Origin: a plasmid
Reading direction: 5' to 3' (one strand)
DNA length: 64,000 nt
Sequence record: NZ_CP119397.1
Part shown: piece by piece, positions 6,370 to 64,000 of the stretch
How positions within the stretch are numbered: position 1 is the first letter of the stretch
How the letters are laid out: each line of letters begins with the position of its first letter
The notes under the pieces: generated by a model
The model's input: only the letters and a program-made list of their open reading frames with translations
The model's database searches: none
What the model was told of the DNA's origin: nothing
Translations under genes and position numbers: made by a program

Positions 6370-7096
6370 CTTTTTTCCCCACCAGCAGAATGGCGGCGAT
6401 GCCGCTGAGCGCCCCGGCCGGCACATAGTAGGCCGTACCGGGAAAGAGGTGCCAGGTGATCCCGGCGCTCACCAGGCTGACCAGCCACGGCAGCGCCGCA
6501 CGGGTGCCGCGCCACATGCCTTTGAGCAGCACCAGAAACACCGCCGGGAACGCCATATCAAACCCAAAGCGGGTGATGTCCCCCAGCAGCGGGCCGACCA
6601 GCACGCCGCACCCGGTGGAAAAGACCCAGAGCAGCCAGAGCGCACCCGCCACCCCGGCATAAAAGCCCATGCTCAGCGCCGGGGCCAGCCCGCGGGCGCG
6701 GCGATCCAGGGCGTCCGCCATACCCATCGCCCAGCACTCATCACACATGAAAAACAGCGCCGGTAACGCCTTCCGGGCGGGAAGATGGTGCAGGTAGGGC
6801 GCGAGCGACGCCCCCATCAGCAAGTGGCGGCTGTTCACCAACAGGCTCACCAGCACAATGGTCAACAGCGGCGGCGGTGACGCCCAGAGCGCAATGGCGG
6901 CAAACTCCGAGCCACCGGCGAAGTTCAGCCCGGTCAACAGCGACAGCCCGGCCGCCGTGAACCCTTTTTGCGCGGCCTGCGCGCCGAGCAGCAGCCCGAA
7001 CGGCAAGATGCCGATCATCACCGGCAGCGCGGCCACCACGCCCCGGAAGACCTCATCGGAAACGCGGGTCGCGGGTGATACCCTGATGCCTGACAT
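6365..7096 (-). CDS. azlC: AzlC-family branched-chain amino acid transport protein
   Basis: 243 aa membrane protein with AzlC-family signature; translationally coupled to azlD. Confidence 0.8.
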   Translation of the reverse strand: MSGIRVSPATRVSDEVFRGVVAALPVMIGILPFGLLLGAQAAQKGFTAAGLSLLTGLNFAGGSEFAAIALWASPPPLLTIVLVSLLVNSRHLLMGASLAPYLHHLPARKALPALFFMCDECWAMGMADALDRRARGLAPALSMGFYAGVAGALWLLWVFSTGCGVLVGPLLGDITRFGFDMAFPAVFLVLLKGMWRGTRAALPWLVSLVSAGITWHLFPGTAYYVPAGALSGIAAILLVGKKA

Positions 7097-7295
7097 GGCT
7101 CCCTCCTGTTAATAATCCCGTGTGAACCCCGTGCGGGCGGATGCCCTGACGGCGACGCAGTATAGCGCAGGCGCAACATTTTTTTAACACTCAAGAGGGG
7201 GTAGACGCGGGGGGAAGCACCGCAGGGAAAGGTGAAGGGGGAAGGTAAAGGGGAAAGAAATCGCGGCAAAAGGTTGCCCTTCTGCCGCGCTACGC

Positions 7296-8048
7296 TTATT
7301 TCTCGGTGCCGAAGCCCTGTTTGATCACAGCCGGCAGCACGTTCGGGAAATAGATATGTTTATAATACCCACCCACGCTCTCACTCCAGCTGTCGCCGTC
7401 TGTGCGGCCAATGGTTGCCCAATGCTGCTGGATTTCCTGGTTATAACGGGCGATCAGTGCCGGCATACCCTCTTTCTGATAGGTCTCTTCATGGCGGAAG
7501 GTTTCCATCGGCAGGCGCGGCTTCTGGTGCGCCGGTTCATCGACGTAGCCCAGCGCCAGGCCGACCACCGGGAAGGTCAGGGACGGCAGCGCCAGCAGGT
7601 CAATCATCTCGTCCGGGCTGCGGCGGATACCGCCAATCGGCACCACGCCCAGCCCCGCGGAGCGGGCGGCCGTCATCGCGGAGGCCAGCGCAATACCGAT
7701 GTCAGTGCAGCCGGAGACCAGGCTCTCGATGCTCTGGTGGGCGATCTGCGTCTCGCCGTTCATGGCAATCGCCTGTTCACTTTTATGCATATCCAGCACA
7801 AAGGTGAGAAACACCGGCGCCTGGGCAATCCACGGCTGGCCACCGGCGATCCCGGCAATCTGGCGGCGGCGGGCGCTGTCACGCGTCACAATCACCGACA
7901 CCTGCTGGGAGTTCACCGAGGTCGGTGCACGGTATGCGGACGCAATAATCGCATCCAGGATCTCGTCAGAAATGGCAGTGTCGAGGAAACTTCTTTCACT
8001 GCGATGGCGGGTCAGGGTGTCAATAACGGAATTCATAGTACTCTCCAC
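7296..8048 (-). CDS. oxygen-insensitive NADPH nitroreductase, NfsA-like
   Basis: 250 aa; collinear with E. coli NfsA (TxxHRSxRxF N-term, GLGxVxIGGIR, KPRLP motifs). Confidence 0.8.
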   Translation of the reverse strand: MESTMNSVIDTLTRHRSERSFLDTAISDEILDAIIASAYRAPTSVNSQQVSVIVTRDSARRRQIAGIAGGQPWIAQAPVFLTFVLDMHKSEQAIAMNGETQIAHQSIESLVSGCTDIGIALASAMTAARSAGLGVVPIGGIRRSPDEMIDLLALPSLTFPVVGLALGYVDEPAHQKPRLPMETFRHEETYQKEGMPALIARYNQEIQQHWATIGRTDGDSWSESVGGYYKHIYFPNVLPAVIKQGFGTEK

Positions 8049-20170: not shown

Positions 20171-20322
20171 AGCCCGCCGGCTTCTTTTTCCCGCTGGCTA
20201 AAGTTTCGGCAAAAACCCACCGATAACTTACCAGCAGGACGTTTATGTACAGGATGTCGCCTATGTGATAGCGCAACGCCGGGAGTGCCATAATGGCCGG
20301 AAAAGTACGACAGAAACACCCC

Positions 20323-22415: not shown

Positions 22416-23954
22416 ATGTTGGCCCTATTCCGTAACCGGTCCCCTGAACGCATCATGCGCGCGTGTTTGATGATTATCAGCGCGGCGGTGCTGTTCACCG
22501 GCACCTGGTCGCTCTGGCACTCCTGGCACGGCACCGTGCAGGATGCCGAGAAGGACGCGAAAAACCAGTCGCTGTCGCTCTCGCGGCAGGCGCAGGATAC
22601 CTTTTTACAGGTGGAACTCACCCTGGAGGAGCTGGCGCGCAACGCAGACGCGATGTTTGCCGCGCCGTCCCATTTTGCCGGGCCGGGCGGGCTGCTGGCC
22701 ATGCAGAAGAGCAAACTGCCGCAACTGAATGGGCTGTTCGTCTATGACGCGCAGGGGCGCTGGGTCACCACGACCGCGAAACACGTGCCGCCGCGGGCCA
22801 ATAATGCTGACCGGGAATATTTTATCTGGCACCGTGAGCATAACGACGCGCTGATCCACGTCGGGCATGTGATCCGCAGCCGCTCCAGCGGGGAGCTGAT
22901 CATCCCGGTATCCCTGCGCCTGAATGATGCGCAGGGGGCGTTCCGCGGCGTGGTGCTGGGCACGGTGAGGGTCGATTTTTTCCGCCACTTTTATGGCTGG
23001 TATGAGCAGGGGCCGAACGATCTGCTCGGGCTGCTGCACGCTGACGGCACCATCCTTTATATGCGCCCCTTCCCGGACAGCGTGATTAACCGCAGCCTGG
23101 CGCACAGCCCGCTGTTTACCCGCCTGCTGAAAAGTGCGCTCACCGGCACCCGCACCTGGAAAAACCGGGTGGACGGCGTAACGCGCCTGACGGGCTATGC
23201 CCGGCTGGAGCGCTACCCACTGGTGGCGGTGGCCGGTTATGACCGTAATGCCTTACAGCGCACCTGGTTCAGCAATAATGCGGTGATCATCATCCTGAAC
23301 GGCCTGCTGCTGTTGCTGGTGATCGTGCTGGGCCTGCTGGGGTTGAGGCAGTTCAACACCACCTTGCGTAAACAGCGTGAGCTGCTGGAAGTGCGTGACG
23401 AGCTGACGCGGGTCAACCATACCTTGCAGGATCTGGCGCTGGTGGACGGCCTGACCGGCATCGGCAACCGCCGCCAGTTCGATTTTTATCTGGAGCAGTG
23501 TCTGCTGCGTGCGAAAGGGTCCGGGTTGCCGGTGTCGCTGGTGATGCTGGACATCGACTTTTTCAAAAACTACAACGATGCCTTTGGCCATGTTGCCGGT
23601 GACGAATGCCTGAGGCAGGTCGCGGAGATCCTCGACCACCTGCCGCGCCGCGGTGCCGACCGGGTAACCCGCTACGGCGGCGAAGAGTTCGCGCTGATCC
23701 TGCCGGGCACCGGCGCCGATGAAGCCAGACAGGTGGCGAAACGCGCACTGGCGGCCCTGCGCCGGGCGGCCCTGCCGCACAGCGCCAGCCCGTTGCCGGA
23801 AAAAATCGTCACCCTGAGCGGCGGCGTCAGCACCGCCCACCCCGGCGGCAGCGCCGATGAGCTGAAACGGGCAGCCGATGCCGCGCTCTATCAGGCCAAA
23901 CGCGCCGGCCGTAACCGGATTATGGGTGCCGGGGTGGTGAAGGAGGGGGAATGA
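22416..23954 (+). CDS. sensor diguanylate cyclase (periplasmic sensor domain + GGDEF)
   Basis: N-terminal TM, ~270-aa periplasmic domain, TM, GGDEF domain with intact RYGGEEF active site. Confidence 0.85.
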   Translation: MLALFRNRSPERIMRACLMIISAAVLFTGTWSLWHSWHGTVQDAEKDAKNQSLSLSRQAQDTFLQVELTLEELARNADAMFAAPSHFAGPGGLLAMQKSKLPQLNGLFVYDAQGRWVTTTAKHVPPRANNADREYFIWHREHNDALIHVGHVIRSRSSGELIIPVSLRLNDAQGAFRGVVLGTVRVDFFRHFYGWYEQGPNDLLGLLHADGTILYMRPFPDSVINRSLAHSPLFTRLLKSALTGTRTWKNRVDGVTRLTGYARLERYPLVAVAGYDRNALQRTWFSNNAVIIILNGLLLLLVIVLGLLGLRQFNTTLRKQRELLEVRDELTRVNHTLQDLALVDGLTGIGNRRQFDFYLEQCLLRAKGSGLPVSLVMLDIDFFKNYNDAFGHVAGDECLRQVAEILDHLPRRGADRVTRYGGEEFALILPGTGADEARQVAKRALAALRRAALPHSASPLPEKIVTLSGGVSTAHPGGSADELKRAADAALYQAKRAGRNRIMGAGVVKEGE

Positions 23955-39491: not shown

Positions 39492-39803
39492 TTCCCTCTG
39501 GCCCCTGTTTACTGCGGGGGCCTTGCCGTACGGCCCTACCCTGTTCTCAACCCCTTGAAATCGCAGGGTTATCCTCATCCCCTCTCCTGCTCCGCGATAA
39601 GCCTTGGGTGATCTTACTCACAGATTTATATCAAGTTTTTCCCGCAGGTGCCGATTTAGTGAGCCTCGGCGAGCGTAAAAAAAGCCCTGGTGCCTGTGCG
39701 CCGGGGCGCTGCCGGTAAGCCAGCGTACTTGGGCGTTATCCGGGCATACCCGGTATTAAGGGATGGCCGCGCTGCCGCATTCTATTTCAAAGGGGAAGAA
39801 GTG

Positions 39804-41357
39804 ATGGTTTCTGTGAAAAATATGAGAGTGGGCCTCCGTCTGGGGGCGGCATTCGGGTTAGTCATCCTGCTTTTGATCATCGTCAGCACCACCGCCATCG
39901 TCAAAATCGGCAACATCAACTCCGCCGTGGATGGCATCGTCAATGACCGCTACATCAAAGTCCGGCTGGCGTTTGATGTCCGGGACGGCGTGAACGATCA
40001 GATCAAATTCCTGCGCGGCATCGTTATTGATACCGCGCGGCCGCAGTTCAATGAAAAACGGTTTAAGCAGCTCGCGGCCGCCACCACCCAGACCAACGAG
40101 GCGATTGAGAAAATCGCCCGCTTACAGACCACCGCCGTCGGCCAGAAAAAAATCAGTGGGGTGAAAGCCGCGGCAGAGGCGTTTGAAACCCAGAAACAGG
40201 CCCTGATCGCCCTGGTGCGCGCCGGTGATGAGCTTGCCGCCGCCGAATATGTGCTGCTGAAAATCACCCCGGCGCAGAACGCGTTTCTCGACAGTGCAGT
40301 GAAGTTCGCCGATTCCCAGTCCGGCCAGTTGCAATCTGAGGGTGCGCAAGCGCTCAAAGACGGCTCCACCGCCATCAATGTCACGCTGATTTTCTCCGCG
40401 CTGGCGATCCTGGCTGCGGTGCTGCTGGGCTATCTTCTGACCCGTTCAATCGTCAGCCCGCTGCGTGACGCCGTCAGCGTTGCCGAAAATGTGGCGGCGG
40501 GCGATCTGCGCACGGTGATCCGCGTCACCTCGACGGATGAAACCGGCCAGCTGATGCAGGCGCTGAAAAACATGAACGAAAACCTGCTGAAAATCGTCAA
40601 TGAAGTGCGCAGCGGCACTGACCTTATCGCCAACGCCTCCGGTGAGATTTCCGCCGGGAATATGGACCTGTCAGTCCGCACCGAACAGCAGGCCAGCTCA
40701 CTGGAAGAGACTGCCTCCGCCATGGAGCAGATGACCTCCACCGTGCGGCAGAATGCCGACAACGCGCGCCAGGCCAACCAACTGGCGGCGCAGGCCTCCA
40801 GGGTGGCGACCGAAAGCGGCGACGCGGTGAAGCAGGTGGTCAGCACCATGAATATGATCAACACCTCGTCGAAGAAAATCGTCGACATCATCAGCGTGAT
40901 TGACGGCATCGCCTTCCAGACCAACATCCTGGCGCTGAATGCCGCGGTGGAAGCCGCGCGTGCCGGTGAACAGGGGCGCGGGTTTGCCGTGGTGGCGTCT
41001 GAAGTGCGTAACCTGGCACAACGTTCCGCCTCCGCTGCCAAAGAGATTGCCCAGCTGATTGAAGACTCGGTATCGAAAGTGGATGAGGGTGAAAAGCAGG
41101 TCGCCAAAGCCGGTTCGACGATGGAAGAAGTGCTGGCCAGCGTGAAAAGCGTGACTGACATCATGGGTGAAATTACCCTGGCCAGCGCGGAACAACGCAG
41201 CGGTATTGAAGAGATCAACACCGCCATCACCCAGATGGACCAGGTCACCCAGCAGAATGCCGCGCTGGTGAACGAATCCGCCGCTGCTGCCCAGTCGATG
41301 CAGGAACAGGCGCACCAGTTGGCGCGTGCCATCCGCGTGTTTAAGGTTGAGGCGTAA
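39804..41357 (+). CDS. methyl-accepting chemotaxis protein with four-helix-bundle periplasmic sensor
   Basis: TM-periplasmic 4HB-TM-HAMP-MA; signalling hairpin identical in motif to MCP at 20323. Confidence 0.85.
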   Translation: MVSVKNMRVGLRLGAAFGLVILLLIIVSTTAIVKIGNINSAVDGIVNDRYIKVRLAFDVRDGVNDQIKFLRGIVIDTARPQFNEKRFKQLAAATTQTNEAIEKIARLQTTAVGQKKISGVKAAAEAFETQKQALIALVRAGDELAAAEYVLLKITPAQNAFLDSAVKFADSQSGQLQSEGAQALKDGSTAINVTLIFSALAILAAVLLGYLLTRSIVSPLRDAVSVAENVAAGDLRTVIRVTSTDETGQLMQALKNMNENLLKIVNEVRSGTDLIANASGEISAGNMDLSVRTEQQASSLEETASAMEQMTSTVRQNADNARQANQLAAQASRVATESGDAVKQVVSTMNMINTSSKKIVDIISVIDGIAFQTNILALNAAVEAARAGEQGRGFAVVASEVRNLAQRSASAAKEIAQLIEDSVSKVDEGEKQVAKAGSTMEEVLASVKSVTDIMGEITLASAEQRSGIEEINTAITQMDQVTQQNAALVNESAAAAQSMQEQAHQLARAIRVFKVEA

Positions 41358-47672: not shown

Positions 47673-48560
47673 TTAATGCGAAGTGGTGAACGAGGCGAGC
47701 ACGAGACGGGTCGCGGTTGCCAGCACGTCGCGGCGGGCTTCGGCATCCGCTTTTGGCTGCGTAAAGTAGATGGCCAGCACCAGCGGTTTGCCGTGCGGCG
47801 GCCAGATAACCGCCAGATCGTTGGTGGTGCCGTAGTCGCCCGATCCGGTTTTATCCCCGACGTCCCAGCCTGCCGGCACCCCGGCGCGGATACTCTTCGC
47901 ACCGGTCTGGCTGTTCTTCAGCCAGCCAATCAGTTGCTGTTGCTGGGCCTGGGGCAAGGCCTCGCCCAGTGCCAGGTGTTGCAGGTTACGCGCCATCGCC
48001 CGCGGTGTGGAGGTGTCGCGTTCATCACCGGGAATGGCGGTATTCAATTCCGGCTCCCAGCGGTCAAGGCGGGTTTTGTCATCCCCCAGGCTGCGCGCCA
48101 GTTTGGTAATGCTCTGCGGCCCGCCGATCTCGGTTAACAACAGGTTGGCGGCGGTGTTATCACTCCATTCAATCGCCGCTGCGCAGAGTTCTGCGACCGT
48201 CATCCCCTCTGCCAGATGTTTGCCGGTGACCGGCGCGTAACTCTGCAAGGCGGCGCGATCGTAACGGATGCGTTTTTCCAGCAACGCCGGTTGCGTGACG
48301 CTGCGTTGCAGTACCGCACCCGCCGCCAGCACTTTAAAGGTGCTCGCCATGGCGAAGCGCTCTTCACCGCGGTAGGTGATTTCCCGCTGGCTGCCGGTGT
48401 CGATCAGCGCGACCCCAAGCCGCCCATTGGCGTTGCGCTCCAGTTCCGCCAGTTGGGCCGTCAGCGTATCGGTGGCCGCAGCGGCCTGAAAAACAGCGCC
48501 GGAGAGCGCCAGCCCGGCAGCGAACAGAAGGGTACGGCGGCAACGTGACAACAGATTCAT
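47673..48560 (-). CDS. bla: class A beta-lactamase, CTX-M/RAHN/FONA-like chromosomal-type
   Basis: Signal peptide; S70-T-F-K, S130-D-N, E166 (WEPELN), K234-T-G-S motifs; KTGSGDYGTTNDLAVIWP nearly identical to CTX-M family. Confidence 0.9.
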   Translation of the reverse strand: MNLLSRCRRTLLFAAGLALSGAVFQAAAATDTLTAQLAELERNANGRLGVALIDTGSQREITYRGEERFAMASTFKVLAAGAVLQRSVTQPALLEKRIRYDRAALQSYAPVTGKHLAEGMTVAELCAAAIEWSDNTAANLLLTEIGGPQSITKLARSLGDDKTRLDRWEPELNTAIPGDERDTSTPRAMARNLQHLALGEALPQAQQQQLIGWLKNSQTGAKSIRAGVPAGWDVGDKTGSGDYGTTNDLAVIWPPHGKPLVLAIYFTQPKADAEARRDVLATATRLVLASFTTSH

Positions 48561-52235: not shown

Positions 52236-53822
52236 TTACGCCTGCGCTGCCCCGTCCCCATAGCCCAACTCCGTTTCCAGAAAGGCCACCAGCGCCGCTG
52301 ACGTGGGCACATTCATCAGTTGTTCACGAAAATCGCTGTGCATCAGCTTGCGTGCCAGCGTGGAAAAGATGCGCATATGCTCAGTCTGTGCCTGCGCCTT
52401 CAACGCCAGCATGATAACCAGCCGGACATCCACCCCGTCGCCCCAGGGCAGCGGGGTTTTCAGGCGCAACACCGCGAGCGTGTTGTGGAGGATGGCGGGG
52501 GACTGGCAGTGCGGGATCGCCACGGAAAAGCCCAGCGCGGTGGAGAACACCGCCTCACGCTGCCAGATGGCGCGCTCCGCCTCCACGCCGGACGCGGCAC
52601 GCTGGTCACTTTCCAGCCTGTCGGTCAGCTGCTTTATCACCTCATATTTATCGGGAAGGGTGTCATCAAGCTGTACCAGCGCAGGTGTGATCAGCGGCCG
52701 CGGCGCGGCCGTTTCCTCACGCCACTGAGGCCGCGGTTTATCACGCTCCAGCGTGAACCATCGCCCGGCCACTGCATCCGGGTCAGCAACCAGCACCCCA
52801 TTGCGCGCGTCCAGCAGCACGCGGGTTGCCTGCTGCATCTGCGGGTGCGCCCCAGGCGGCACGCAAAGCAAAGGTATGGAAAACGCCCGCGCAAGAATGG
52901 CGGTATGGGAGGTTTCCGCGCCCGTTTCCATCACAATGCCGTGCAGGTGGGGGCCGCGCAGGGCCAGCAATTGCCCCGGCGTCATCCTGCCCCGGCAGAG
53001 CACAATCGCCGCCTGTGTCAGCGCCGGTACTGCCAGTTGCGGATCGCGCGAGAGGCACGCGGCCAACCGGAACCCCAAATCCTGCATATCCAGCTCGCGC
53101 TGGCGCAAATAGTCGCTGTCGCTCTGCCGGAACGGCAAACGCAGCGCATCGAGGGCGCAGGCGAGGGCGGCCAGCGCATTGGCCGCGCCCTGTTGGCTGA
53201 ACAGCGCCTCTTCCACCGCCTCATCCCCCAGCAACTGGCTATGCGCGTCCAGGATTTGTGCGGCCTCGCCCTGGGCAGCGGCGGCGTCGCGTTCAAGTTG
53301 CGCACGGGCGCGGTGCCACGCCGCCAGCAGGTGCTGATGCTGCGTGGCGTGGTCGGTGGCAGGCTCACGTTGCGCCAGCCGGTGAAGATCGGCAGGTGTG
53401 AAACTCACCGGCACCCCCAGCGCTATCCCCGGGCTGACGCCGTTCCCGCGCAGCACCGGGGAGGCCGTGCGTGCGAGGAAAACCGGCAGTGCACAGTCTG
53501 TGCCCGGCGCGTGCGCGGCCGGTGGGGTATCGCACCCGGCCAGCTCATGCAGGATAAAATGGCTCAACGCCTGATGGGCCGCCTGCGCGTCCGGCCCGTC
53601 GATCTGTAACCGGCACGCATTTCCCAGGGCGACATCCGCCCCCACCAGCGCCAGCGCACTTTTGGCATTGGCCTGGCGCGCGTTATTGCCGTTCACCAGC
53701 GTCACAGACGAGGTAAACCGTGCGGCGCAGCGCGCCAGTGCACCGGCAGGGCGGGCATGGAGGCCATGCGGTAACGGGTAATGGAATGAAAGGGTCAGCA
53801 TCATATTCTCCTCCTGTGGCAT
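52236..53822 (-). CDS. PTS multiphosphoryl transfer protein: HPr - EI phosphohistidine domain - EIIA(Fru/Ntr type)
   Basis: N-terminal HPr (HYPLPHGLHARPAGAL...); central PEP-utilising mobile domain (ETGAETSHTAILARAF); C-terminal EIIA-2 (FSTALGFSVAIPHCQ). Confidence 0.7.
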   Translation of the reverse strand: MPQEENMMLTLSFHYPLPHGLHARPAGALARCAARFTSSVTLVNGNNARQANAKSALALVGADVALGNACRLQIDGPDAQAAHQALSHFILHELAGCDTPPAAHAPGTDCALPVFLARTASPVLRGNGVSPGIALGVPVSFTPADLHRLAQREPATDHATQHQHLLAAWHRARAQLERDAAAAQGEAAQILDAHSQLLGDEAVEEALFSQQGAANALAALACALDALRLPFRQSDSDYLRQRELDMQDLGFRLAACLSRDPQLAVPALTQAAIVLCRGRMTPGQLLALRGPHLHGIVMETGAETSHTAILARAFSIPLLCVPPGAHPQMQQATRVLLDARNGVLVADPDAVAGRWFTLERDKPRPQWREETAAPRPLITPALVQLDDTLPDKYEVIKQLTDRLESDQRAASGVEAERAIWQREAVFSTALGFSVAIPHCQSPAILHNTLAVLRLKTPLPWGDGVDVRLVIMLALKAQAQTEHMRIFSTLARKLMHSDFREQLMNVPTSAALVAFLETELGYGDGAAQA

Positions 53823-56404
53823 CAGTCGATTAACCAGGAAACCGGCGTACCGGCGGTCACCACGTCATCCGTTACCGCGCTGGGCGTCTCGGCCAGGGTG
53901 ACCCGGCGGCACGCCCCCTCAGCCACCGGTTGCCCGCAGTGAAGCGGCGTGAGGCCGGGGTTCCAGCCACGCAGCAGCAGCGCATTGCTGTGCTGCGCTT
54001 TTTGAGGGTGCTGAAATGCAGCGCGCAGTCCCATGACAGCAGGCTGTAACGCGCCGGAAAGTGCAGCCCATGTGGGTTGGTGCGAAAGCGTGACCAGCCG
54101 CTCTCAAGATAGCCGGAGGCCGGGGTACGCCACTGCTCAACCGCCCGCCAGAAGGCCGCATCTTGCCCCTGCGCCATCGGCAGTACCGCGAAATGGGCGT
54201 GATACAGGCCGGGAAGCTGCGAATCGGGCGTCGGCAGGGCCATGCCGGACGCACGGCCCGGCCGCCACAACAGGTCAGGTTTTCCCAGCCAGCCGACACT
54301 GCGGAACAGGGTGATCGCCAGCGTCTGTGGCTGTTGGGCCGGGATTTCATACTCCCGCAACCCCTCGGTAACGACGCACACACCGCGCGTCCCGTTATGC
54401 AGCATCACCAGGCTTTGCATCGGCCAGAGTGACGCCGGGGCCTCGGCCCAGTTTTTCCGCCTGCCAGCGCTGCAACGCGGCAGGCTGGTTTTCCCGTTCA
54501 ATCAGCCCAAACGGCTGATCGGCGAAGTGAACGGCCTGGCTGACCCCGACCGGGATTTCCACCTGCAACCGGTGGTCGCGCAGCGTATTGTTGACCTCAA
54601 TCTCCACATCCAGCCACGGCCGGTCATGCGGGAGCGACAGGACCAGGGTGACCTCCAGCGCGGCATTACACTGCCTGGCCTCGCGGGCGGCGGCGTCCAG
54701 CGGGGCAGGGATGCGCCAGGTGAGCGTCAGGGTATCGTTCAAAGGCCCGCGCACCCCGTGCAGGCCGGTCAGGCAGCCGTCACTGCTGATTTTCCAGTCT
54801 TCCGGCGGGGGCGAATAGTTGTAGTTATCCCCGGCGTCGCCGCCGTCCACCAGCCGCAATACACCGGGATAGCGCTGCCCGCTGCGTTTATCCTCCAGCG
54901 TAAGCTGCCCGTGCTCGACCACCAGCCGTAACCAGCGGTTCTCCAGCCCCTCCACCGCGGCCGGGGTGGTGTCAAACCCGGCTGCCCGGCCCTCCTGCAA
55001 CATCAGGGTCTGGTAACCGCAGGGCGGCAAGGCCTTCACCTCCAGCAGGATGTCGCATTTGCGATACCAGGTGGCCGTGGTGCTGTTTGACAGCTCCTGC
55101 ACGATGAGCGACATATCCTGCGGGGCTTCATGCAGCAGTTGCCAGCGGCAGGGCGCCCCGGCCTGATCCACAATGCAGAAATCCTGTTCGGGCGTGTAGA
55201 GGGTCAGGCGGACATGCGCATCGCGTTCGTGGGGCAGCGGGTTGAACACGATGATTTTCTTGCCCTCGCCGTTCAGCGTGATGCCTGCCGCCAGCATGGC
55301 CATGTTCAGTTCATAAAGCTGCCGGGCGCTTTCCAGCCCATCGCACAGGCGCGCGTTGACCATGCTGTTTACGCGGTCTGCATTGCAACCGCCGATGCTG
55401 TCATGCGCCTGCGATTTCATCGCCCCACGCCAGATCTGTTCCAGCACCGGTTGCGGGTAGGGCAGCCCCAGCCGGGCATTCATCGCCAAAAGCGGCTCCA
55501 GCGTCTGGCTGACAAACTGCTCCAGCCGGGCGTTCCGCTGTTTTATGTCCATGCGGGTGGAATAAATCCCGCGATGGACACGCATATATTTTGCGCTGAG
55601 CAACTCGCCGCGCCATACCGGCAGCGCGCAGCCGGTGGCCTGCAACGCGCTGAAAAAGGCAGTAAAACTGCTGCGCTTAAAACGGTATGCCTGCTGGCGC
55701 AGGTTCAGCGTATCCAGCATCGCAGGCACTGCATATTCGAAGGGGGACTGGTCGTTGCCGTTAGGCAGCAACAGGTGATCGGTCAGGGAAAAACGCGCCT
55801 GTTTGTCGAGGATGGCAGGCAGGCGTTGCGCCGCCTGCGTTGCCTCCCCCGGCAACCCTTTGGCACAGCCGTAGCCCCAGGGCAGCACCGCGGTGGTCAC
55901 GCGGCTGCCGTTCTGGGCGCACCAGGTAAATTCGCTGGCAGGGACATCATGCTCGCACCAGCCGCGCCAGATCACCGCGCAGCCGATGCCGAACTCGCGC
56001 AGAAACAGCGGAAGCTGGGCGCTCTGCCCAAAAGAGTCCGGGACATAGCCGACCGGCATGTAACCGCCCCACGCCTCGCAGTCCGCTTTTCCCAACAGCA
56101 GGTTGCGGGTGATCGACTCCGCCCCCACCACCAAAAAATCGGTCTGGGTATACCAGGGGCCAATCAGGATCCGCCCCTGGCGGATCAGCGTTTGCAGGCG
56201 TTCACGGTGTTCCGGGGCGACCTGCACATCATCCTCCAGCATCACCGTTTGCCCATCCAGCACAAAAGGCCCGAGGCCAGGATCCTGTTCCAGGCGACAG
56301 AGCAGATCCTGCATAAAATAATAGAGCAGCGTTTTTGACTCATTCTCAGTGAAATACCACTCGCGATCCCAATGCGTATGCTGAATGACATGCACGGTTT
56401 TCAT
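53822..56404 (-). pseudogene. mngB: GH38 alpha-mannosidase (MngB-like mannosylglycerate hydrolase), interrupted by at least two frameshifts
   Basis: N-terminal VHVIQHTHWDREW GH38 signature in ORF 54395-56404; C-terminal GH38 sequence continues in two other frames (53872-54501, 53822-54034). Confidence 0.7.
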
Positions 56405-58508: not shown

Positions 58509-58566
58509 TAAAAAAGGCACCTTGACGGTGCCTTTTTGGTACTATTTATACACTCTTTTTACACCA
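58509..58566. repeat. R7: repeat-family copy (AAAAAGGCACCTTGACGGTGCCTTTTTGGTACTATTTATACACTCTTTTTACACC)
   Basis: Located 3' of DGC gene; GGCACC-N5-GGTGCC hairpin. Confidence 0.7.
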
Positions 58567-58589: not shown

Positions 58590-60089
58590 TTACCCGTTAT
58601 CTGTCAGGCAGGCGGCATTAATGATGCAGTCCCGCCCGGCGCGTTTGGCGGCATAAAGCGCGGCATCGGCGGCCTGTTTCAGGGTGGTGGCGTCATCCCC
58701 GGCGGTGGATGTGCTGATCCCGGCGCTGAGCGTGATGATTTTATCGGGCAGCAGGGAGGTATGGTGCGGCAACGCCGCGTTGTGTATCGCATACCGGATG
58801 CGTTTTGCCACCTTTTCCGCCTCATTGGCCGAGGTGCCCGGCAGGATGACCGCAAACTCCTCCCCGCCGTAACGCGCCACAACATCAGTGCTGCGGCGCG
58901 GCAGGTATTTCAACACATCAGCCACCCGCCGCAGGCACTCATCCCCCGCGACGTGGCCGAAGGTGTCGTTGTAGCTTTTGAAAAAATCGATGTCGCACAT
59001 AATCAGTGACACCGGTGCGCCGGTGAGGGACGCGCGCGCCAGGCACTGTTCCAGGTAAATATCAAACTGGCGGCGGTTGCCCAGCCCGGTCAGGCTGTCA
59101 ATCAACGCCAGATCCTGAAGCGTCAGGTTGACGCGGGTCAGCTCATCCTGTGTCTGCATCAGCTCCCGCCGGTGCCTCACGGTTTTACGGAACTGTTTCA
59201 GCACCAGCATCCCGAACAGGGAAATGGTCATCAACAGCAGCACATTGAGGCAGATAATCGCCAGGTTGTTTTTAATCCACTGGGTTTTCAGCAGATCGCG
59301 GTCAATGCCGACCGCCACCACCAGCGGGTAGCTCTGAAGCTGGGCATAGCCGAAAATACGCGTGACGCCGTCAATCGGCGAGTGCCAGGTACCGGCGCCC
59401 TGGGGCGAGGCTTTAAGCAGGCTGCGGTAGAGCGGGGTGTCTGCCATGCTCTTGTTGATGATGCGGTCTGAAAACGGACGCACGTACATCACCGTGGCAT
59501 CCAGATGGGTCAAACCGAGAATGTCTTTGGGCGACATCTCATAGTAGCCGTAAAACTGGCGGAAAAAATCGACCCGCACCGTGCCCAGCACCACCCCGCG
59601 GAACCGGCCCTGATCGTCATTCAGCCGCAAAGAGACCGGGATAATCAGGTCACCGGTCGAGCGGCTGTGGATCACATGGCCGACATGCACCCGCGCATCG
59701 TTATGCGTCCGGTGCCAGATAAAATATTCACGGTCGGCATTGTTGGCCTGCGGGTACATCCGGCGGCCGGAAGTCGCCAGCCAGTTCCCTTGCGCATCAT
59801 AAACAAAAAGCCCATGCAGTTGCGGCAACCGGCTTTTTTGCACCCCCAACAACCCCTGCGGGCCGAGGTAGCTCGCCGGGTTCGCGAAGATATCATCACC
59901 GTGGCGGACAATGTCTTCCAGCGTGATCTGCACTTGCAGGAAGGTATCCTCGGCCTGGCGGGACAAGGAGATCGACTGGTTTCTGGCCTGCTTTTCGGTG
60001 TCCTGCAACGTGTGTTGCCAGGATTGCCACATTGACCAGCCCACCACGAAGACCACGGCAACCGCAATAATAAGCAGGAAAACCGCCAT
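58590..60089 (-). CDS. sensor diguanylate cyclase, paralog of 22416-23954
   Basis: Same architecture, RYGGEEF motif; ~60-65% identity to first copy over full length by eye. Confidence 0.85.
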   Translation of the reverse strand: MAVFLLIIAVAVVFVVGWSMWQSWQHTLQDTEKQARNQSISLSRQAEDTFLQVQITLEDIVRHGDDIFANPASYLGPQGLLGVQKSRLPQLHGLFVYDAQGNWLATSGRRMYPQANNADREYFIWHRTHNDARVHVGHVIHSRSTGDLIIPVSLRLNDDQGRFRGVVLGTVRVDFFRQFYGYYEMSPKDILGLTHLDATVMYVRPFSDRIINKSMADTPLYRSLLKASPQGAGTWHSPIDGVTRIFGYAQLQSYPLVVAVGIDRDLLKTQWIKNNLAIICLNVLLLMTISLFGMLVLKQFRKTVRHRRELMQTQDELTRVNLTLQDLALIDSLTGLGNRRQFDIYLEQCLARASLTGAPVSLIMCDIDFFKSYNDTFGHVAGDECLRRVADVLKYLPRRSTDVVARYGGEEFAVILPGTSANEAEKVAKRIRYAIHNAALPHHTSLLPDKIITLSAGISTSTAGDDATTLKQAADAALYAAKRAGRDCIINAACLTDNG

Positions 60090-60337
60090 GACGCGATCAG
60101 GCGATTTAAAGCGGGATAAAGCTAAGCACTCCTCCGGTCAGGTTAACGGTGTTGCGGCATCAGTTTACGTGATTCCCCCCGGTGCAAAGGGCAGATAAAC
60201 CGCCCTGCAGAGCGTTAATCTCCCGCGCCCCGGCGGGGGACACTTCAGGTTTACTGATGCATAAGATGATTTGCGTTTAATCACTTTATCAGAGATAGCA
60301 CCGCAGACTGGTAGGTTGAGCAGAGCTTCTCCCGAAG

Positions 60338-60361
60338 TTATCCACCGTTTCTGTGGATAAC
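60338..60361. promoter_or_regulatory. inverted pair of DnaA boxes (TTATCCACC ... TGTGGATAA)
   Basis: TGTGGATAA is exact complement of consensus TTATCCACA; TTATCCACC 1 mismatch; 6-bp spacer. Confidence 0.55.
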
Positions 60362-60427: not shown

Positions 60428-60502
60428 ACGGCACCTTTGCAGCACAATAATAGTACCAAAAAGGTGTTTTTTTAACACTATCCCGACACCTTTTTGACAC
60501 GT
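60428..60502. repeat. R8: repeat-family copy (TAGTACCAAAAAGGTGTTTTTTTAACACT...GACACCTTTTTGACACG)
   Basis: Shares TAGTACCAAAAAGG core. Confidence 0.6.
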
Positions 60503-60713
60503 CCTGTCGTCAGCCTGGCCGCAGCGCTTCGTTAAACGAACGAAAACTGTTTTTACCGCGGTGTTTTCGCTTCAGCCGGGGTAATGTGGGAAAGAGAGAC
60601 CGCGTAAAAAAGAACAGAAAGGTGAGAGGGAAGAAACAGGCTGTTTGTACCGGCGGAATAAAAAGCAGCATGTCACATAACTTTTTTGCAGGCGCATTTA
60701 TAGCGCTGCCAAT

Positions 60714-60760
60714 CAATAAGGCACCTTAACGGTGCCTTTTTAGTACCATAAAGGTGTCAA
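60714..60760. repeat. R9: repeat-family copy (AAGGCACCTTAACGGTGCCTTTTTAGTACCATAAAGGTG)
   Basis: GGCACCTTAACGGTGCC identical to hairpin of R3/R6/R7 class. Confidence 0.7.
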
Positions 60761-60767
60761 AACAGGA

Positions 60768-61055
60768 TCACTGTAATTCGTTCTGCCCATGTTCGGCATA
60801 AAAGGCCAGCGCATAGCGGATCATATTCAGTTTGGAGCGCTGTGTTTTTTCACATAACGCTTCAAGCTGCGCGAACTCATATTCATTGAACGGGACGCGG
60901 ATAGCTTTGTAATCACGCTTGGCGTCTTTATCGTGCGTGGGTTCGGCTGCCGCACTATGGTCAGCCTGGGCTGCAAAGGCTTCTATTTTTTTATCGACCG
61001 GGATAGCCGGCGCTTCTCGGCGTTTTACCATGAGATCAACTCCTGTACCAGACAC
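60768..61055 (-). CDS. parG: ParG-like ribbon-helix-helix centromere-binding partition protein (alt. start 61031)
   Basis: C-terminal RHH (RVPFNEYEFAQLEALCEKTQRSKLNMIRYALAFYAEH) with disordered N-tail, directly downstream of small ParA. Confidence 0.6.
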   Translation of the reverse strand: MSGTGVDLMVKRREAPAIPVDKKIEAFAAQADHSAAAEPTHDKDAKRDYKAIRVPFNEYEFAQLEALCEKTQRSKLNMIRYALAFYAEHGQNELQ

Positions 61056-61660
61056 TGAATTTCCGCTTTCGCTTTGCCGTTATCCATTTCCACCACGCCT
61101 TTACCCTCAGACATACAATCGCGGTAAATTTTGCGGTCACGGATCACGGTATTCAGCAGGTTAAGGATTGGGAAATCAGCCAGGTAGTCTTTGGCTTCCT
61201 GCGTTTCATTGATCACCGGATTGGTCGGGGCCATCGTCAATACGGCACAAGGGCGCAGCGCCTCGTTGATGTCCAGCGCCTGGGTGATGATGTCATTAAG
61301 CTTCGGCAGGGTGTCCAGATCCGGCTGTGACGGGCGGAACGGCACCAGCAGCACATTGGCGGCCGTCATGCCGGTACGCAACTCGCGGCTGTCACGCCCG
61401 GCGGAATCCACCACCACATACTCATAGCGCTTGGCCAGGTCGAGCAGCGTTTCGCGGATATTGTCAAATTTCTGGATGCTGTGAACCACCGGCAGATCCT
61501 CCTGCCCGTTCCGGTCTGTGACCCAATTTGACGCGGTACCCTGGCGGTCTGCATCCACCAGAATGACATCTTTGCCCTGACGCGCCAGCTCTGCACAGAT
61601 ATTGGCCGCCGTGGTTGACTTGCCGCATCCGCCTTTCTGGCTGCCGATGAGTATAATCAT
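61025..61660 (-). CDS. parA: ParA-family partition ATPase (small type Ib, ParF/ParA-like)
   Basis: 211 aa; deviant Walker A KGGCGKST, DADRQGTAS, Walker B VVDSAG. Confidence 0.85.
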   Translation of the reverse strand: MIILIGSQKGGCGKSTTAANICAELARQGKDVILVDADRQGTASNWVTDRNGQEDLPVVHSIQKFDNIRETLLDLAKRYEYVVVDSAGRDSRELRTGMTAANVLLVPFRPSQPDLDTLPKLNDIITQALDINEALRPCAVLTMAPTNPVINETQEAKDYLADFPILNLLNTVIRDRKIYRDCMSEGKGVVEMDNGKAKAEIQCLVQELISW

Positions 61661-61777
61661 GATACCTTCCTGGAGTTAATTAAGTGCTGAATTGGTACCA
61701 ATTGAATATCAAAACGGAACACAATTCAACCCTGTTTTCAGTGGGTAAGCAAAGGCCGGCCATGCCCGCCCGCCGCC

Positions 61778-62707
61778 TCAGGGAGCCGGGTGATCCAGCG
61801 CCTGGCAGAACCAGCTCACCACCCGGCCAATCACCGCCGGCTGGAACCAGTGCAGGTCTGCATGTTCCGCGCCGTCAATGATCACATACTCAGCCTGATT
61901 GCCGCGCGCTTTCAGCGCCTCGTACAGCTGTTGGCTTTGCACCGGCGAAACCAGCGTGTCTGCGCTGCCGTGCATAATAAGGAAAGGTGGCTTTGGCCCC
62001 TCAAGGTGACCCATCGGGCTGGCCGCCAGCGCCCTGGCCGGATCAGCCGTGATTGGCGCGCCCCCATGTTCTTTAAATGCCACGCCGTTGATTAACAGTG
62101 CCTGAGTGATGGCCGGCGAACGCTGGATGGCCTGCGCTTCGGGAGAGAACCCTTCAGTAATATTAAGCAGGTTGGAAATGCCGTACAGCGTGGCGGCGGC
62201 CTGGACATCTGACGCGTGCTGTAAGTAACGTCCTTTATCAAAGGTGCGCTGCCCGTTGGTCATGGCCATCATTTGTGCCATATAGCCCCCGGCGGAATCT
62301 CCCACCACGCCGATGCGGGCGCTATCAATGCCGTACTCTTCAGCATGTTCCCGCAGAAACCGCACGGCTGCTTTGCCGTCTTCTATTAAGGAAGGGTAGG
62401 GGTTCGGTATTACCCGGTATTCCACGGCCGCCACCACAAAGCCGGCTTTCGCCAGTGCATACCGCATACCGATATATTTTTCATGGTGGGCGGACATAAA
62501 GCCCCCACCCGGAAAATAGAGGATGGCCGGTTTTTTCTGCTCACTGCGTGGGATAAGCAGTGACATTCTCAGCTGCCGGATTTCTGCCACGCTTTTGACC
62601 TGTGAGTAGATAACATGGCTGATGGCATCAATCTGTGTTTCCCGGCTCTCAACCCGGATCACCTCTGCGCCGTCTGTATAGCCGGGCAGTTCGTTGAATG
62701 CGGACAT
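61778..62707 (-). CDS. alpha/beta-hydrolase fold-3 esterase/lipase (HSL family)
   Basis: HGGGF oxyanion motif (FPGGGF), GDSAGG nucleophile elbow; AAGGAAAG SD before ATG 62707. Confidence 0.8.
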   Translation of the reverse strand: MSAFNELPGYTDGAEVIRVESRETQIDAISHVIYSQVKSVAEIRQLRMSLLIPRSEQKKPAILYFPGGGFMSAHHEKYIGMRYALAKAGFVVAAVEYRVIPNPYPSLIEDGKAAVRFLREHAEEYGIDSARIGVVGDSAGGYMAQMMAMTNGQRTFDKGRYLQHASDVQAAATLYGISNLLNITEGFSPEAQAIQRSPAITQALLINGVAFKEHGGAPITADPARALAASPMGHLEGPKPPFLIMHGSADTLVSPVQSQQLYEALKARGNQAEYVIIDGAEHADLHWFQPAVIGRVVSWFCQALDHPAP

Positions 62708-62797
62708 GATTCTTGCTTTCCTTCTTTTATATGTCGTGAAGATAGGTATAGCGAAGATTTCCCGGTCGCAGCGCAGAATCAGAACGTCATCCAGGGA

Positions 62798-62875
62798 AAC
62801 GTGATAAAAATTGCGGTGCTTTTTTGGTACTAAAAGGGAATGTTTTAAGTGTATTAAACACACTGTTTAGGCATC
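62798..62875. repeat. R10: repeat-family copy fused to a degenerate iteron (AAACGTGATAAAAATTGCGGTGCTTTTTTGGTACTAAAAGGG...)
   Basis: Iteron-like 22-mer immediately followed by TTTTTTGGTACTAAAAGG core. Confidence 0.6.
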
Positions 62876-62910
62876 AAAACAGCACCAGAATTGCGACGTT
62901 GAGGCAGTAT

Positions 62911-63610
62911 AAACGTGATAAGATTTGCGGTGCGGAACGTGTGTCTTAACAGGTTGAGAATCCGGCATTTTATAAAATGCTGGGGAGATGAGGCAGATCA
63001 AGGAAGCGTGATATTGAGTGGGCTGCACTTGAAAATTGCCATAGAGATAAAGTGCAGGAATGGGTGGCGTTCCGGTGCTGCCAGACCGGCCGTAATTCCG
63101 GCAAACCGCACTTTTTTCTGCCCTTGTGGCGATGTTTCCTTACCCCTTTTCATCCGGCCCGGCATCGTGTTGTCGCCGTTTTTCTCAGTCAGTATCAAAA
63201 AGGCATCAAAATCACGCCTTTTGCGGGTGTTTTTAGTACTAAAAGAGTATTCATTTGGCACTGCTTTTTATCTTAAGGTGATAAGATTTGCGGTGGGATT
63301 TCTCACTCATTTCACGCCAGACTGCGATCGGGCTTCCAAACGTGATATGTTTTCGGGAGCGTTTACCTTTTGAGTTAAAATAGTTAATTATCAGTGGGTT
63401 ATATCAATACCCCAGCCAGGTGAAACGTGATAACTTTTGCGGTTCATCAGCGCGCTTTCAGGCAAAGGAAAATCCATACGTGATACGTTTTGCGGTTCAT
63501 GAGAAAGGGAAACCTATTTCGCTGGGTGATGAGTCACGATCCTGCAACGGCGATCCGGTTGTGCAGGAGGATCCCATGGGCTGATCGCCAAACGTGATAA
63601 GATTTGCGGT
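62911..63610 (+). repeat. dispersed iterons I2-I7 (consensus AAACGTGATAAGATTTGCGGT) at ~60-110 bp intervals
   Basis: Copies at 62911, 63275, 63337 (degenerate), 63423, 63476, 63589, all in same orientation. Confidence 0.75.
63195..63270. repeat. R11: repeat-family copy (…ATCAAAATCACGCCTTTTGCGGGTGTTTTTAGTACTAAAAGAGT…)
   Basis: Shares AAAATCAC and TAGTACTAAAAGAG cores with R3/R4/R1. Confidence 0.55.
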
Positions 63611-63830
63611 CTTAGTTTCCATATTATTTATTACAAAACAATAAAATAGCGTATTACTTCTTGTTGAATAGCCCTTTTTTGCAATTATGCTGAAGTTGAT
63701 TGATTTCACATTATTCAGATCTTAAAAAACAAAGCGAAGCTGCGTTAGTTTGTTTTTTTCTTTGTTTCTATGTTTCTATGTTTCTTGTTTCTAGGGGTGT
63801 TTTTCCCTATCTGCTTCAACGGGTTACAAA
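63611..63830. other. AT-rich stretch with short tandem GTTTCTATGTTTCTATGTTTCT repeats (candidate DNA-unwinding element)
   Basis: Marked drop in G+C between dispersed and tandem iterons; triple GTTTCTAT repeat. Confidence 0.55.
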
Positions 63831-63833
63831 GGC

Positions 63834-63920
63834 ATACGTGATAAGATTTGCGGCTTAACGTGATAGGATTTGCGGTCTGACGTGATAAGATTTGCGGTCT
63901 GACGTGATAAGATTTGCGGC
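63834..63920 (+). repeat. four tandem 22-bp iterons (ACGTGATAAGATTTGCGG(T/C) + 3-bp spacer), followed by two degenerate copies to 63975
   Basis: Exact 22-bp periodicity (two helical turns), same orientation, adjacent to AT-rich region: classic iteron-type oriV layout. Confidence 0.8.
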
Positions 63921-64000
63921 TAAACGTGATCTCAGGATCTGTTGATAACTCGGTTTTTAAGGTGATATATTTTGCTAAAATATCACCTGTCGGAAAGCAC

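Follow-up and report, generated by a model that had tools for sequence, protein, structure and literature searches.

This analysis concerns the replication and partition region at 60.4-64.0 kb of a 64,000-nt stretch of the plasmid sequence record NZ_CP119397.1. The whole stretch is called the window here, and all coordinates are positions in it unless another sequence is named. Towards the window end, the region carries the gene for a small ribbon-helix-helix (RHH) protein and the gene for a partition ATPase (parA), both on the minus strand, followed by a cargo gene, a field of directly repeated iterons, an AT-rich region, and the leader of a replication initiator gene (rep), the ATG of which is the first codon beyond the window. 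In the following, we describe the elements of the region and their conservation, assign the window to a plasmid, and consider how the elements may work together.

Iterons, AT-rich region, and initiator gene

The features on the rep side of the region are listed below, with the strand where one applies.

62796-63610 (~815 bp), plus strand: seven dispersed iterons, with 22-nt-frame starts at 62796, 62910, 63273, 63337 (degenerate), 63422, 63475, and 63589
63538-63586: GATC cluster, four sites in 49 bp (63538, 63552, 63570, and 63583), upstream of the iteron that borders the AT-rich region
63610-63832: AT-rich region, putative DNA-unwinding element (DUE), 71% A+T over 63610-63800 against ~40% in the window
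63726-63759: invariant 34-nt dyad block AAAACAAAGCGAAGCTGCGTTAGTTTGTTTTTTT, inside the AT-rich element
63833-63920, plus strand: four origin iterons in exact 22-bp tandem register, with pattern starts at 63836, 63858, 63880, and 63902
63924-63948: truncated iteron ACGTGATC, two GATC sites (63928 and 63936), and the DnaA-box-like TTATCAACA (minus strand, 63940-63948)
63942-63971, plus strand: promoter-like site for rep, -35 TTGATA, 18-nt spacer, -10 TATATT with an upstream TG, 10/12 matches
63960-63988: half-iteron inverted repeat AGGTGATAT-N11-ATATCACCT, overlapping the -10 TATATT
63992-64000, plus strand: Shine-Dalgarno-like GGAAAG and spacer, with the rep ATG at the next base, 64001

The iterons were sought throughout the 64-kb window with the pattern ACGTGATAAGATTTGCGG, allowing three or fewer mismatches and taking dinucleotide-preserving shuffles as the background. 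Ten matches were found where 0.03 would be expected, all of them on the plus strand and all within 62799-63919. An eleventh, degenerate copy, which starts at 63340 (4 mismatches), was recovered by a repeat finder and a looser scan, and a truncated twelfth, ACGTGATC, lies at 63924-63931; the consensus in a 22-nt frame is caaACGTGATAaGaTTTGCGGt. The initial annotation, which was made from the sequence alone, had spoken of about 12 repeats in the same orientation, a figure that holds when the truncated copy is counted together with the 11 others, and it was right about the four copies in perfect 22-bp tandem register. The dispersed copies, however, number seven over ~815 bp, rather than six over 700 bp, and the tandem array stops short of the window edge, at 63920, 81 bp from the rep ATG, with other elements in the last 80 bp. 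Two open reading frames (ORFs) in this field, 62915-63373 (plus strand) and 62998-63261 (minus strand), are called genes in some contigs; they were rejected, as they overlap each other and the iterons and lie in a stretch that is unalignable between species.

When public assemblies were searched for exact copies of ParA, eight contigs were obtained, which belong to strains of Chimaeribacter arupi and 'Nissabacter archeti' and to one metagenome; they are 99.1-99.5% identical to the window over 51-64 kb and align up to its last base. Every one of these contigs that extends past the origin has a gene for a protein of 334 amino acids (aa), the ATG of which corresponds to window position 64001; in the locus L007, window base 64000 is position 7662 and rep occupies 7661..6657. 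Its product contains the Pfam domains Rep3_N (2e-35) and Rep3_C (4e-19), that is, the winged-helix domains WH1 and WH2. Among solved structures, it matches RepE of F (1rep) with 7e-22 over residues 11-240, RepA of pPS10 (1hkq) with 2e-14, and pi of R6K with 2e-10. In the species-representative genomes, the protein is 100% identical in C. arupi 2016-Iso3, 99% in C. californicus, and 97% in C. coloradensis. The initial annotation had predicted a RepA/Rep_3-family initiator in the next kilobases, immediately beyond 64000, and this is precisely where the gene lies. Judged from these sequence matches, the view that the replicon has an iteron-type theta origin with a Rep_3 (RepE/RepA/pi-like) initiator is supported. 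A search of 60-64 kb with Rfam gave one chance-level match only, with no sign of antisense-RNA copy control.

A megablast search of PLSDB with window 60.7-64.0 kb gave no match, neither to p251, a plasmid of C. arupi discussed below, nor to pSGAir0207_1, and the relatives were found only by blastn and tblastn. The closest annotated plasmids are pRAHAQ02 of Rahnella aceris (NC_015063.1) and the plasmid of Enterobacteriaceae bacterium Kacie_13 (CP045667.1), both of which belong to the MOB-suite rep_cluster_1002 and are referred to here as Rahnella-type plasmids. In both, the homologue of window 63727-63989 ends 19 bp before a gene annotated as 'replication initiation protein / RepB family', and the ParA gene is divergent. 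They share with the Chimaeribacter replicon a related Rep (~80% identical in Kacie_13) and ParA (82% identical in pRAHAQ02), the iteron consensus, the four-copy tandem array, the DUE core, the DnaA-like box, the operator arms, and the divergent parA-RHH genes. They differ from it in their size of 93-133 kb, in their 46-48% G+C over the loci examined, and in having no cargo between parA and the iterons, whereas the Chimaeribacter replicon has 251-305 kb and ~59% G+C and is found across the genus. The layout of rep, origin, parA, and RHH gene is also alike in pSGAir0207_1 (CP028036), a closed 305-kb plasmid of Nissabacter sp. SGAir0207.

For an origin footprint, five replicons were aligned (C. 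arupi, C. californicus, C. coloradensis, Rahnella pRAHAQ02, and Kacie_13), and pSGAir0207_1 was compared as a sixth. Across the six, the iterons, the DUE core, the DnaA-like box, and the operator arms are conserved, while the inter-iteron DNA varies, as does the middle of the inverted repeat. The dispersed iterons keep their number and their places relative to each other in the three Chimaeribacter species, pSGAir0207_1, and the Rahnella-type plasmids, and the DNA between these iterons is diverged or unalignable across the same replicons. The iteron that borders the AT-rich region lies 244 bp from the tandem array in the three Chimaeribacter species, 246 bp in pSGAir0207_1, and 252 bp in Rahnella; the four-copy array itself stands at an equal distance from rep in all relatives compared. 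No iterons were found downstream of rep. By analogy with other iteron plasmids, we infer that the seven upstream iterons would be auxiliary or copy-control (inc) sites for the binding of Rep.

The AT-rich stretch between the two iteron sets, with its repeated short units, had been noticed in the initial annotation and is borne out here: it has 71% A+T over 63610-63800, in a window of 59.6% G+C (about 40% A+T), and contains four T-rich GTTTCT(A)T-type units at 63764-63794. These units and the AAAACAAAGCGAAGCTGCGTTAGTTTGTTTTTTT block are essentially invariant in the six replicons compared, with flanking sequences that have diverged. The block is a 10-bp A/T dyad around a GC-richer core containing GCGAAGC, a very stable DNA mini-hairpin motif. 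Folding of the 34 nt as single-strand DNA gave a modest dyad (z about -1.9 against shuffles), and we make no structural claim for the block, the fold being only modestly better than those of the shuffles.

The four GATC sites at 63538-63586 stand in a window with a GATC density of 4.8 per kb. In other species, two to three GATC sites are kept at the equivalent place despite different surrounding sequence, and the cluster may possibly provide Dam/SeqA control sites. Beyond the tandem array, TTATCAACA matches the DnaA box at 8/9 positions and is kept in the six replicons, in a window that holds 15 matches this good. The sequence TCTGTTGATAACTC is invariant in the five aligned replicons, and pSGAir0207_1 has CTGTTGATAACT. 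The promoter-like site for rep is the top scorer of the promoter scan in the region. The inverted repeat that overlaps its -10 has arms that are invariant in the six replicons and a variable centre (TTGCT, CAGAA, CATAA, or TTTGA), and the arms have GTGATA in common with the iteron. We regard AGGTGATAT-N11-ATATCACCT as a putative operator for the autorepression of Rep.

Further GATC sites and DnaA boxes are found around the region. Just after the rep stop, outside the window, there is a GATC-dense tract (L011 6006-6320) with 8 sites in 315 bp against ~6 per kb locally, which is also present in the loci L012, L013, L001, and L002 and opens with the hairpin GAGACGATC...GATCGTCTC. The Rahnella-type plasmids have three GATC sites just past the rep stop, and the GATC density in the rep gene is 12-13 per kb. 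At 60337-60361, the window contains an inverted pair of DnaA boxes, GTTATCCACC-N5-TGTGGATAAC, one of them perfect (TTATCCACA) and the other an 8/9 match. The pair forms a hairpin with a 9-bp stem, located 3.6 kb from the origin in the interval that separates a GGDEF gene from the RHH gene. C. arupi 2016-Iso3 (L011) likewise has a TTATCCACA box in this position, and in C. coloradensis (L013) one lies less than 100 bp from the end of the RHH gene.

The partition cassette and its palindromes

The partition genes and the GTAC-core palindromes are as follows.

60430-60765: two GTAC-core palindrome modules downstream of the RHH gene (60448-60461 and 60738-60751), candidate centromere and/or terminator
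60768-61031, minus strand: gene of the RHH protein, presumed ParA partner and centromere binder, 87 aa, overlapping the parA stop; supported by the ORF and by gene calls in the eight contigs
61025-61660, minus strand: parA, small Walker-type partition ATPase, ParF-like (type Ib), 211 aa, deviant Walker A motif KGGCGKST at residues 9-16
61690-61703: perfect 14-bp palindrome AATTGGTACCAATT, ~40 nt before the ATG of parA, a candidate operator to which the RHH protein may bind
62822-62835: GTAC-core palindrome TTTTGGTACTAAAA beside iteron 1, conserved in L012 (3856), L013 (3864), and L015 (3609)
63231-63244: perfect GTAC-core palindrome TTTTAGTACTAAAA in the iteron field, conserved in L012 (4229), L013 (4221), and L015 (3366)
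41498, 41542, 43803, 43836, 46759, 47616, 50031, 60448, 60738, 62822, and 63231: sites of the pattern TTTTRGTACYAAAA found by a pattern scan

The description of parA in the initial annotation, as a type Ib gene with a KGGCGKST Walker A motif, is accurate. The protein matches the Pfam families AAA_31, MipZ, CbiA, and VirC1, which are P-loop families of the ParA/MinD type, and its score with the NCBIfam model ParA_partition (2e-45, 154.7 bits) is under the cut-off of 180. Its closest solved relative is ParF of TP228 (4dzz), with 5e-15 over the full length. A minus-strand promoter match at 61679-61650 was considered as the parA promoter and rejected, since its -10 lies inside coding sequence.

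The RHH gene has an alternative GTG start at 61055, which would give a protein of 95 aa. At least 242 homologues make up the unnamed family of this protein; MVKRR at the N-terminus is invariant, the linker that follows varies, and a C-terminal motif, KAIRVPFNEYE...GRSKLN...IR, is conserved. The Pfam model RHH_1 matches it with E 0.016, below the cut-off, and is likewise sub-threshold in 15/40 homologues; the Pfam ParG family matches neither the protein nor the 40 homologues, and a sequence search against solved structures gave no match even at E 10. Because there was no sequence match to solved chains, folds were compared. The AlphaFold2 model has a mean pLDDT (predicted local distance difference test) of 73, with 86-88 over residues 51-80, and shows a strand-helix-helix at residues 43-84. 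In a Foldseek search with this model, nearly all matches were RHH proteins, ParG (1p94) being the first with E 0.36 and every E-value being 0.36 or higher; with CopG (1b01), the target-normalised TM-score is 0.84 and the root-mean-square deviation is 0.9 A. On the strength of the predicted model, the small protein is accepted as ParG-like at the fold level and not as a member of the ParG family. In other words, of the "ParG-like RHH partner" in the initial annotation, the ribbon-helix-helix fold is predicted by the model, and membership in the Pfam ParG family does not hold.

The cassette resembles ParF-ParG-parH of TP228 and par2 of pB171 in its small Walker ATPase and in a partner with a disordered basic N-terminus and a C-terminal RHH domain (both predicted), and it resembles pB171 par2 (parC1 and parC2) in having candidate sites both upstream and downstream of the operon. 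It differs from these systems in that the partner has no sequence match to ParG, in that GTAC-core palindromes take the place of ACTC tetramer boxes or 6-bp repeats as the candidate sites, and in that similar palindromes are spread over 22 kb of the plasmid.

The position of the palindrome AATTGGTACCAATT in front of parA is kept in C. californicus, C. coloradensis, pRAHAQ02, and Kacie_13, and its core T(A/G)GTAC(C/T)A is invariant in the five replicons; the flanks change yet remain palindromic, as in AAAGTAGTACTACTTT of Kacie_13. On the other side of the cassette, the module at 60738-60751 is fused to the hairpin GGCACCTTAACGGTGCC at 60720-60736, and an equivalent downstream palindrome is present in L012, L013, L015, L001, L002, and the Arsenophonus plasmid pArsBee6. 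Related palindromes flank the parA-RHH cassettes, with positions kept, in seven replicons, and several of the copies in the window lie far from par. The pattern TTTTRGTACYAAAA has 11 matches in the window against 0.24 expected, all of them in the origin-proximal 22 kb (41.5-63.3 kb). Hairpins of the form GGCACC-N5-GGTGCC stand at gene 3' ends at 46774, 47631, 50013, 58516, and 60720, and five GTAC-core sites adjoin them, namely four of the 11 pattern matches and a core-only site at 58537. The scattered palindromes might serve the RHH protein as additional binding sites, or they might be an intergenic repeat that carries a terminator.

Two more distant plasmids help to separate the two kinds of repeat. 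The Arsenophonus plasmid pArsBee6 has a ParA that is 72% identical and an RHH homologue, and its Rep is only 27% identical; GTAC palindromes lie on both sides of its par genes, and no ACGTGATA-type repeats occur within the 5.5 kb that hold its rep and par genes. Erwinia amylovora pEA29, with a Rep that is 51% identical, has four iterons in a 22-bp register, but their sequence, TATGTGGAGAGATTTCCTG, is different, and so is the order of its tandem and dispersed iteron copies; a literature search on the pEA29 iterons found no paper. From these comparisons, it follows that the iterons go with Rep and the palindromes with the partition cassette. The RHH adaptor most likely recognises the candidate GTAC-core palindromes, not the iterons.

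In addition to the ParF-like/RHH cassette, the Rahnella-type plasmids carry a second partition system, consisting of a large type Ia ParA and a ParB (L001 8534-12068 and L002 8511-12032), and pRAHAQ02 additionally has a gene with a ParM domain. A Phd/YoeB toxin-antitoxin pair lies directly downstream of rep in both. In Chimaeribacter, none of these (type Ia ParA/ParB, ParM-domain gene, or Phd/YoeB) is found beside rep.

The window as part of p251 and the reading of the region

The closed genome of C. arupi DSM115072 comprises a chromosome of 4,371,535 bp, the circular plasmids p353 (352,560 bp) and p251 (250,769 bp), and a linear element of 37,771 bp, all of which are said to occur in other C. 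arupi genomes too (PMC10587679). Its class A beta-lactamase gene is located at 234,442..235,329 under the locus tag P0E69_22805; the tags 20270-21395 are on p353, at positions up to 302,447, and the tags 22930 and 23080 are at 7,932 and 31,851 of the following replicon (PMC10587679). Because of this order of the locus tags relative to p353 and the following replicon, P0E69_22805 belongs to p251. The class A beta-lactamase ORF of the window, at 47673..48560, has 888 nt as in DSM115072, and the offset between the two sets of coordinates is 186,769 at both ends, which makes window base 64000 base 250,769, the exact length of p251. By this arithmetic, the window corresponds to 186,770-250,769, the final 64 kb of p251. 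p353 was also considered as the source, since two draft contigs are longer than 251 kb, and was dropped, as the beta-lactamase coordinates and the order of the tags indicate p251. The record would be rotated to begin at rep, which would explain why the window stops one base before the ATG; judged from the published coordinates, position 1 of the p251 record would be the rep ATG, with the expected start ATGGCTAAGCTGGACGTT / ATGGCTAAGCTGGACGTTAAA. The supplement of the genome paper has no rep or par annotation (PMC10587679). The suspicion of the initial annotation that the whole window derives from a secondary replicon was well founded, and the view that all 64 kb are plasmid cargo, not chromosome, is supported.

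We regard 60.4-64.0 kb as the maintenance region of the low-copy circular megaplasmid p251 of C. arupi, made up of an iteron theta origin and a divergent type Ib partition cassette, with a probability of about 0.9. How such a region would work can be proposed from its anatomy and from the established RepE (F), RepA (pPS10 and pSC101), and pi (R6K) systems, on which the binding partners, the opening site, and the copy-control role given here are modelled. Rep monomers would bind the four 22-bp-phased iterons (63833-63920) and, with DnaA at the adjacent TTATCAACA box, would open the neighbouring AT-rich element (63610-63830). Rep dimers would bind the half-iteron inverted repeat over the rep -10 and thereby repress their own gene. 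The seven dispersed upstream iterons would titrate Rep and pair with the origin iterons ("handcuffing"), the copy number thereby being limited to ~one per chromosome, and the GATC cluster may contribute Dam/SeqA sequestration. For partition, the ParF-like ATPase would act with the RHH adaptor, most likely on the GTAC-core palindromes that lie at the parA promoter and to either side of the cassette.

Several points weigh against this picture. The rep gene lies outside the window and is known from the sequences of other strains. The identification of p251 is coordinate arithmetic from a published paper, not from the sequence of the record. Two draft contigs with this origin, of 262,745 and 278,309 bp, exceed p251; therefore, either the plasmid size varies between strains or the assemblies join other DNA. 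Within the origin, the DnaA box is only an 8/9 match, of a quality reached 15 times window-wide, the integration host factor (IHF) consensus WATCAANNNNTTR has no match, and promoter-like sites overall are no more numerous than chance. Finally, the control iterons of F and P1 sit downstream of rep, where there are none here, and the inc role of the upstream copies is assigned by analogy only.

A well-known counterpart is RepFIA of F (ori2/RepE, with incB iterons, the repE operator, and incC), which has the same initiator fold family, four repeats in a 22-bp register with an AT-rich region and a DnaA box (a putative one here) just upstream of rep, an inverted repeat that contains part of the iteron and overlaps the rep promoter, a low copy number, and an adjacent partition system. 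On the other hand, Rep shares only ~28% identity with RepE, carries a C-terminal extension, and exceeds RepE by 83 aa. The iterons of the two are unrelated in sequence, and the additional copies stand upstream of the unwinding element here and downstream of rep in F. Partition is of type Ib (ParF-like) here, whereas that of F is SopABC (type Ia). The RepA origins of pPS10 and pSC101 share the order of an AT-rich region, 3-4 iterons of ~22 bp, an inverted-repeat operator, and rep, but both plasmids are small, and their minimal origins have no field of iterons upstream, in contrast to 251-305 kb, seven extra iterons, and GATC clusters here. The oriR/incA of P1 and the ori2/incII of Vibrio cholerae chromosome 2 are comparable in mechanism only: both combine origin iterons with separate control iterons and with GATC clusters inside or beside the origin, in a large replicon with ~one copy per chromosome. 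P1 RepA and RctB are not among the Rep_3 relatives detected, and the Dam/SeqA dependence and handcuffing shown in those systems are putative here.

The principle is already known: an iteron/Rep_3 theta origin of the textbook kind, coupled to type Ib partition genes. The plasmid itself had been reported before, and as a member of this kind it was previously undissected. As far as we found, this is the first origin anatomy of the MOB-suite rep_cluster_1002 type, which maintains plasmids of 93-305 kb in the Yersiniaceae. The features that stand out are the genus-wide vertical conservation with a chromosome-like composition and ~one copy (a chromid candidate), the location of all auxiliary iterons upstream of the unwinding element, and the scattered par-associated palindromes. 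With coordinates for all elements, the scheme is testable, and the elements are usable for vectors in these genera.

It is possible, if on balance unlikely, that the replicon is a chromid, that is, a secondary chromosome which the cell cannot do without but which is maintained in the manner of a plasmid, and not a megaplasmid that could be lost. A plasmid-type Rep_3 initiator and ParA are present, as a chromid would have; Rep (97-100% identity) and the origin are shared by the three named Chimaeribacter species and SGAir0207, with flanking genes diverged to ~82-88% DNA identity, as expected of vertical descent; and the element is said to be in all C. arupi genomes (PMC10587679). The composition fits too, since the 59.6% G+C of the window is within ~1.4 points of the 58.2% of the chromosome (PMC10587679), and pSGAir0207_1 has 59.45% against 60.80% in its chromosome (PMC6687921). 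Sequencing reads covered this plasmid 114x and its chromosome 101x, corresponding to ~one copy per chromosome (PMC6687921). What argues against a chromid is the content: the scan of 20 large ORFs in the 64-kb window brought up no core or essential function, and a tRNA-Cys-like gene in the window reaches the Rfam threshold only with permissive filters.

A different question is whether the seven upstream iterons exert the negative control that we favour. They could instead be positive parts of an extended origin, acting as a Rep-loading site or as a looping enhancer across the unwinding element. This would agree with the one upstream iteron that is fixed at 244-252 bp from the tandem array in all relatives, the two bracketing the AT-rich element, and with the lack of iterons downstream of rep, where F and P1 have their control arrays. 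However, 0.6-1.0 kb of DNA that is not conserved, and in C. arupi also nearby cargo, lies between the outermost copies and the origin. Moreover, additional iterons that stand apart from the minimal origin are established negative elements in F (incC), P1 (incA), RK2, and Vibrio chromosome 2. On balance, we consider a positive role unlikely.

A broader and quite improbable speculation combines several of these features. The p251 type would be a genus-wide single-copy Chimaeribacter chromid whose ParF-like/RHH system uses multiple GTAC-core modules, many of them fused to GGCACC-N5-GGTGCC, over 22 kb on the parA side of the origin, and the dyad block in the DUE would be a further protein or single-strand recognition site. 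The spread of the GTAC modules over 22 kb resembles the distribution of chromosomal parS sites; to our knowledge, such a spread of sites has not been described for type Ib systems.

The two remaining alternatives to an origin on p251 are both highly improbable. It might be argued that the repeats are no replication origin but a centromere for partition, to which only the ParG-like protein binds, given that type Ib centromeres are short direct-repeat arrays beside parA and that dispersed repeats lie here between parA and rep, but the initiator is present, the tandem array abuts the Rep_3 gene and the AT-rich element, the half-iteron inverted repeat overlaps the rep promoter-like site, the parA promoter has a different conserved palindrome, pArsBee6, with homologous ParA/RHH proteins and an unrelated Rep, is without these repeats, and pEA29 combines a related Rep with different iterons in the same 22-bp register. 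Likewise, a defunct plasmid remnant integrated in the main chromosome could account for draft contigs that reach 262-278 kb with the region, for the closeness of 59.6% G+C to the 58.2% of the chromosome (PMC10587679), and for the tRNA-like gene and cspA leader in the window, but the closed assembly has a circular 250,769-bp plasmid whose last 64 kb are fitted exactly by the beta-lactamase coordinates, the SGAir0207 homologue is a closed 305-kb plasmid, and Rep, iterons, operator, and parA are intact and conserved in four lineages.

Cargo genes and further observations

With the window assigned to p251, all 64 kb can be read as cargo of a 251-kb megaplasmid with ~one copy, including the beta-lactamase, chemoreceptors, diguanylate cyclases, phosphotransferase system (PTS), mannosidase, and transporters. 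The assignment is relevant to how mobile the beta-lactamase is, and in what dosage it is present, in an emerging opportunistic pathogen. A functional scan of 20 large ORFs within the window found accessory functions only: transporters, LysR/GntR regulators, two chemoreceptors, two diguanylate cyclases, aminotransferases, a decarboxylase, UbiD, RtcB, PTS components, a GH38 mannosidase, catabolic enzymes, and the class A beta-lactamase. The methyl-accepting chemotaxis proteins are encoded at 20293-22245 and 39690-41357, both on the plus strand, and the diguanylate cyclases, both of the dCache-GGDEF type, at 22416-23954 (plus strand) and 58590-60089 (minus strand). With two genes of each kind in the window, the megaplasmid therefore carries signalling cargo.

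One cargo gene lies inside the maintenance region itself.

61778-62710, minus strand: BD-FAE/alpha-beta-hydrolase esterase, 310 aa (Pfam BD-FAE 1e-41), cargo and not replication or partition machinery

The slot that it occupies, between the parA operator and the first iteron (L012 3631-3790 and L015 3790-4158 in two relatives), varies in content. It holds an intact BD-FAE gene in C. arupi, fragments of it in C. californicus and C. coloradensis, and a glyoxalase gene in pSGAir0207_1, and it is empty in the Rahnella-type plasmids.

The GH38 alpha-mannosidase gene at 53822-56404 (minus strand) is intact in all draft genomes, with 860 aa. The copy in the window differs by a +1 insertion near 54456 and a -1 deletion near 54004, so that 452 nt are out of frame; the frameshifts reflect either a real pseudogene or indel errors of a long-read assembly.

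At the other end of the window, the segment 421-1016 (minus strand) contains a cspA thermoregulator leader (Rfam RF01766, 179 bits) and an ORF for a CspA of 70 aa (624-836). After the CspA ORF, at 421-497, ARAGORN called a tRNA-Cys(GCA)-like gene, which the Rfam tRNA model matches with 37.9 bits under permissive filters only. The presence of a tRNA on a megaplasmid bears on the chromid question.

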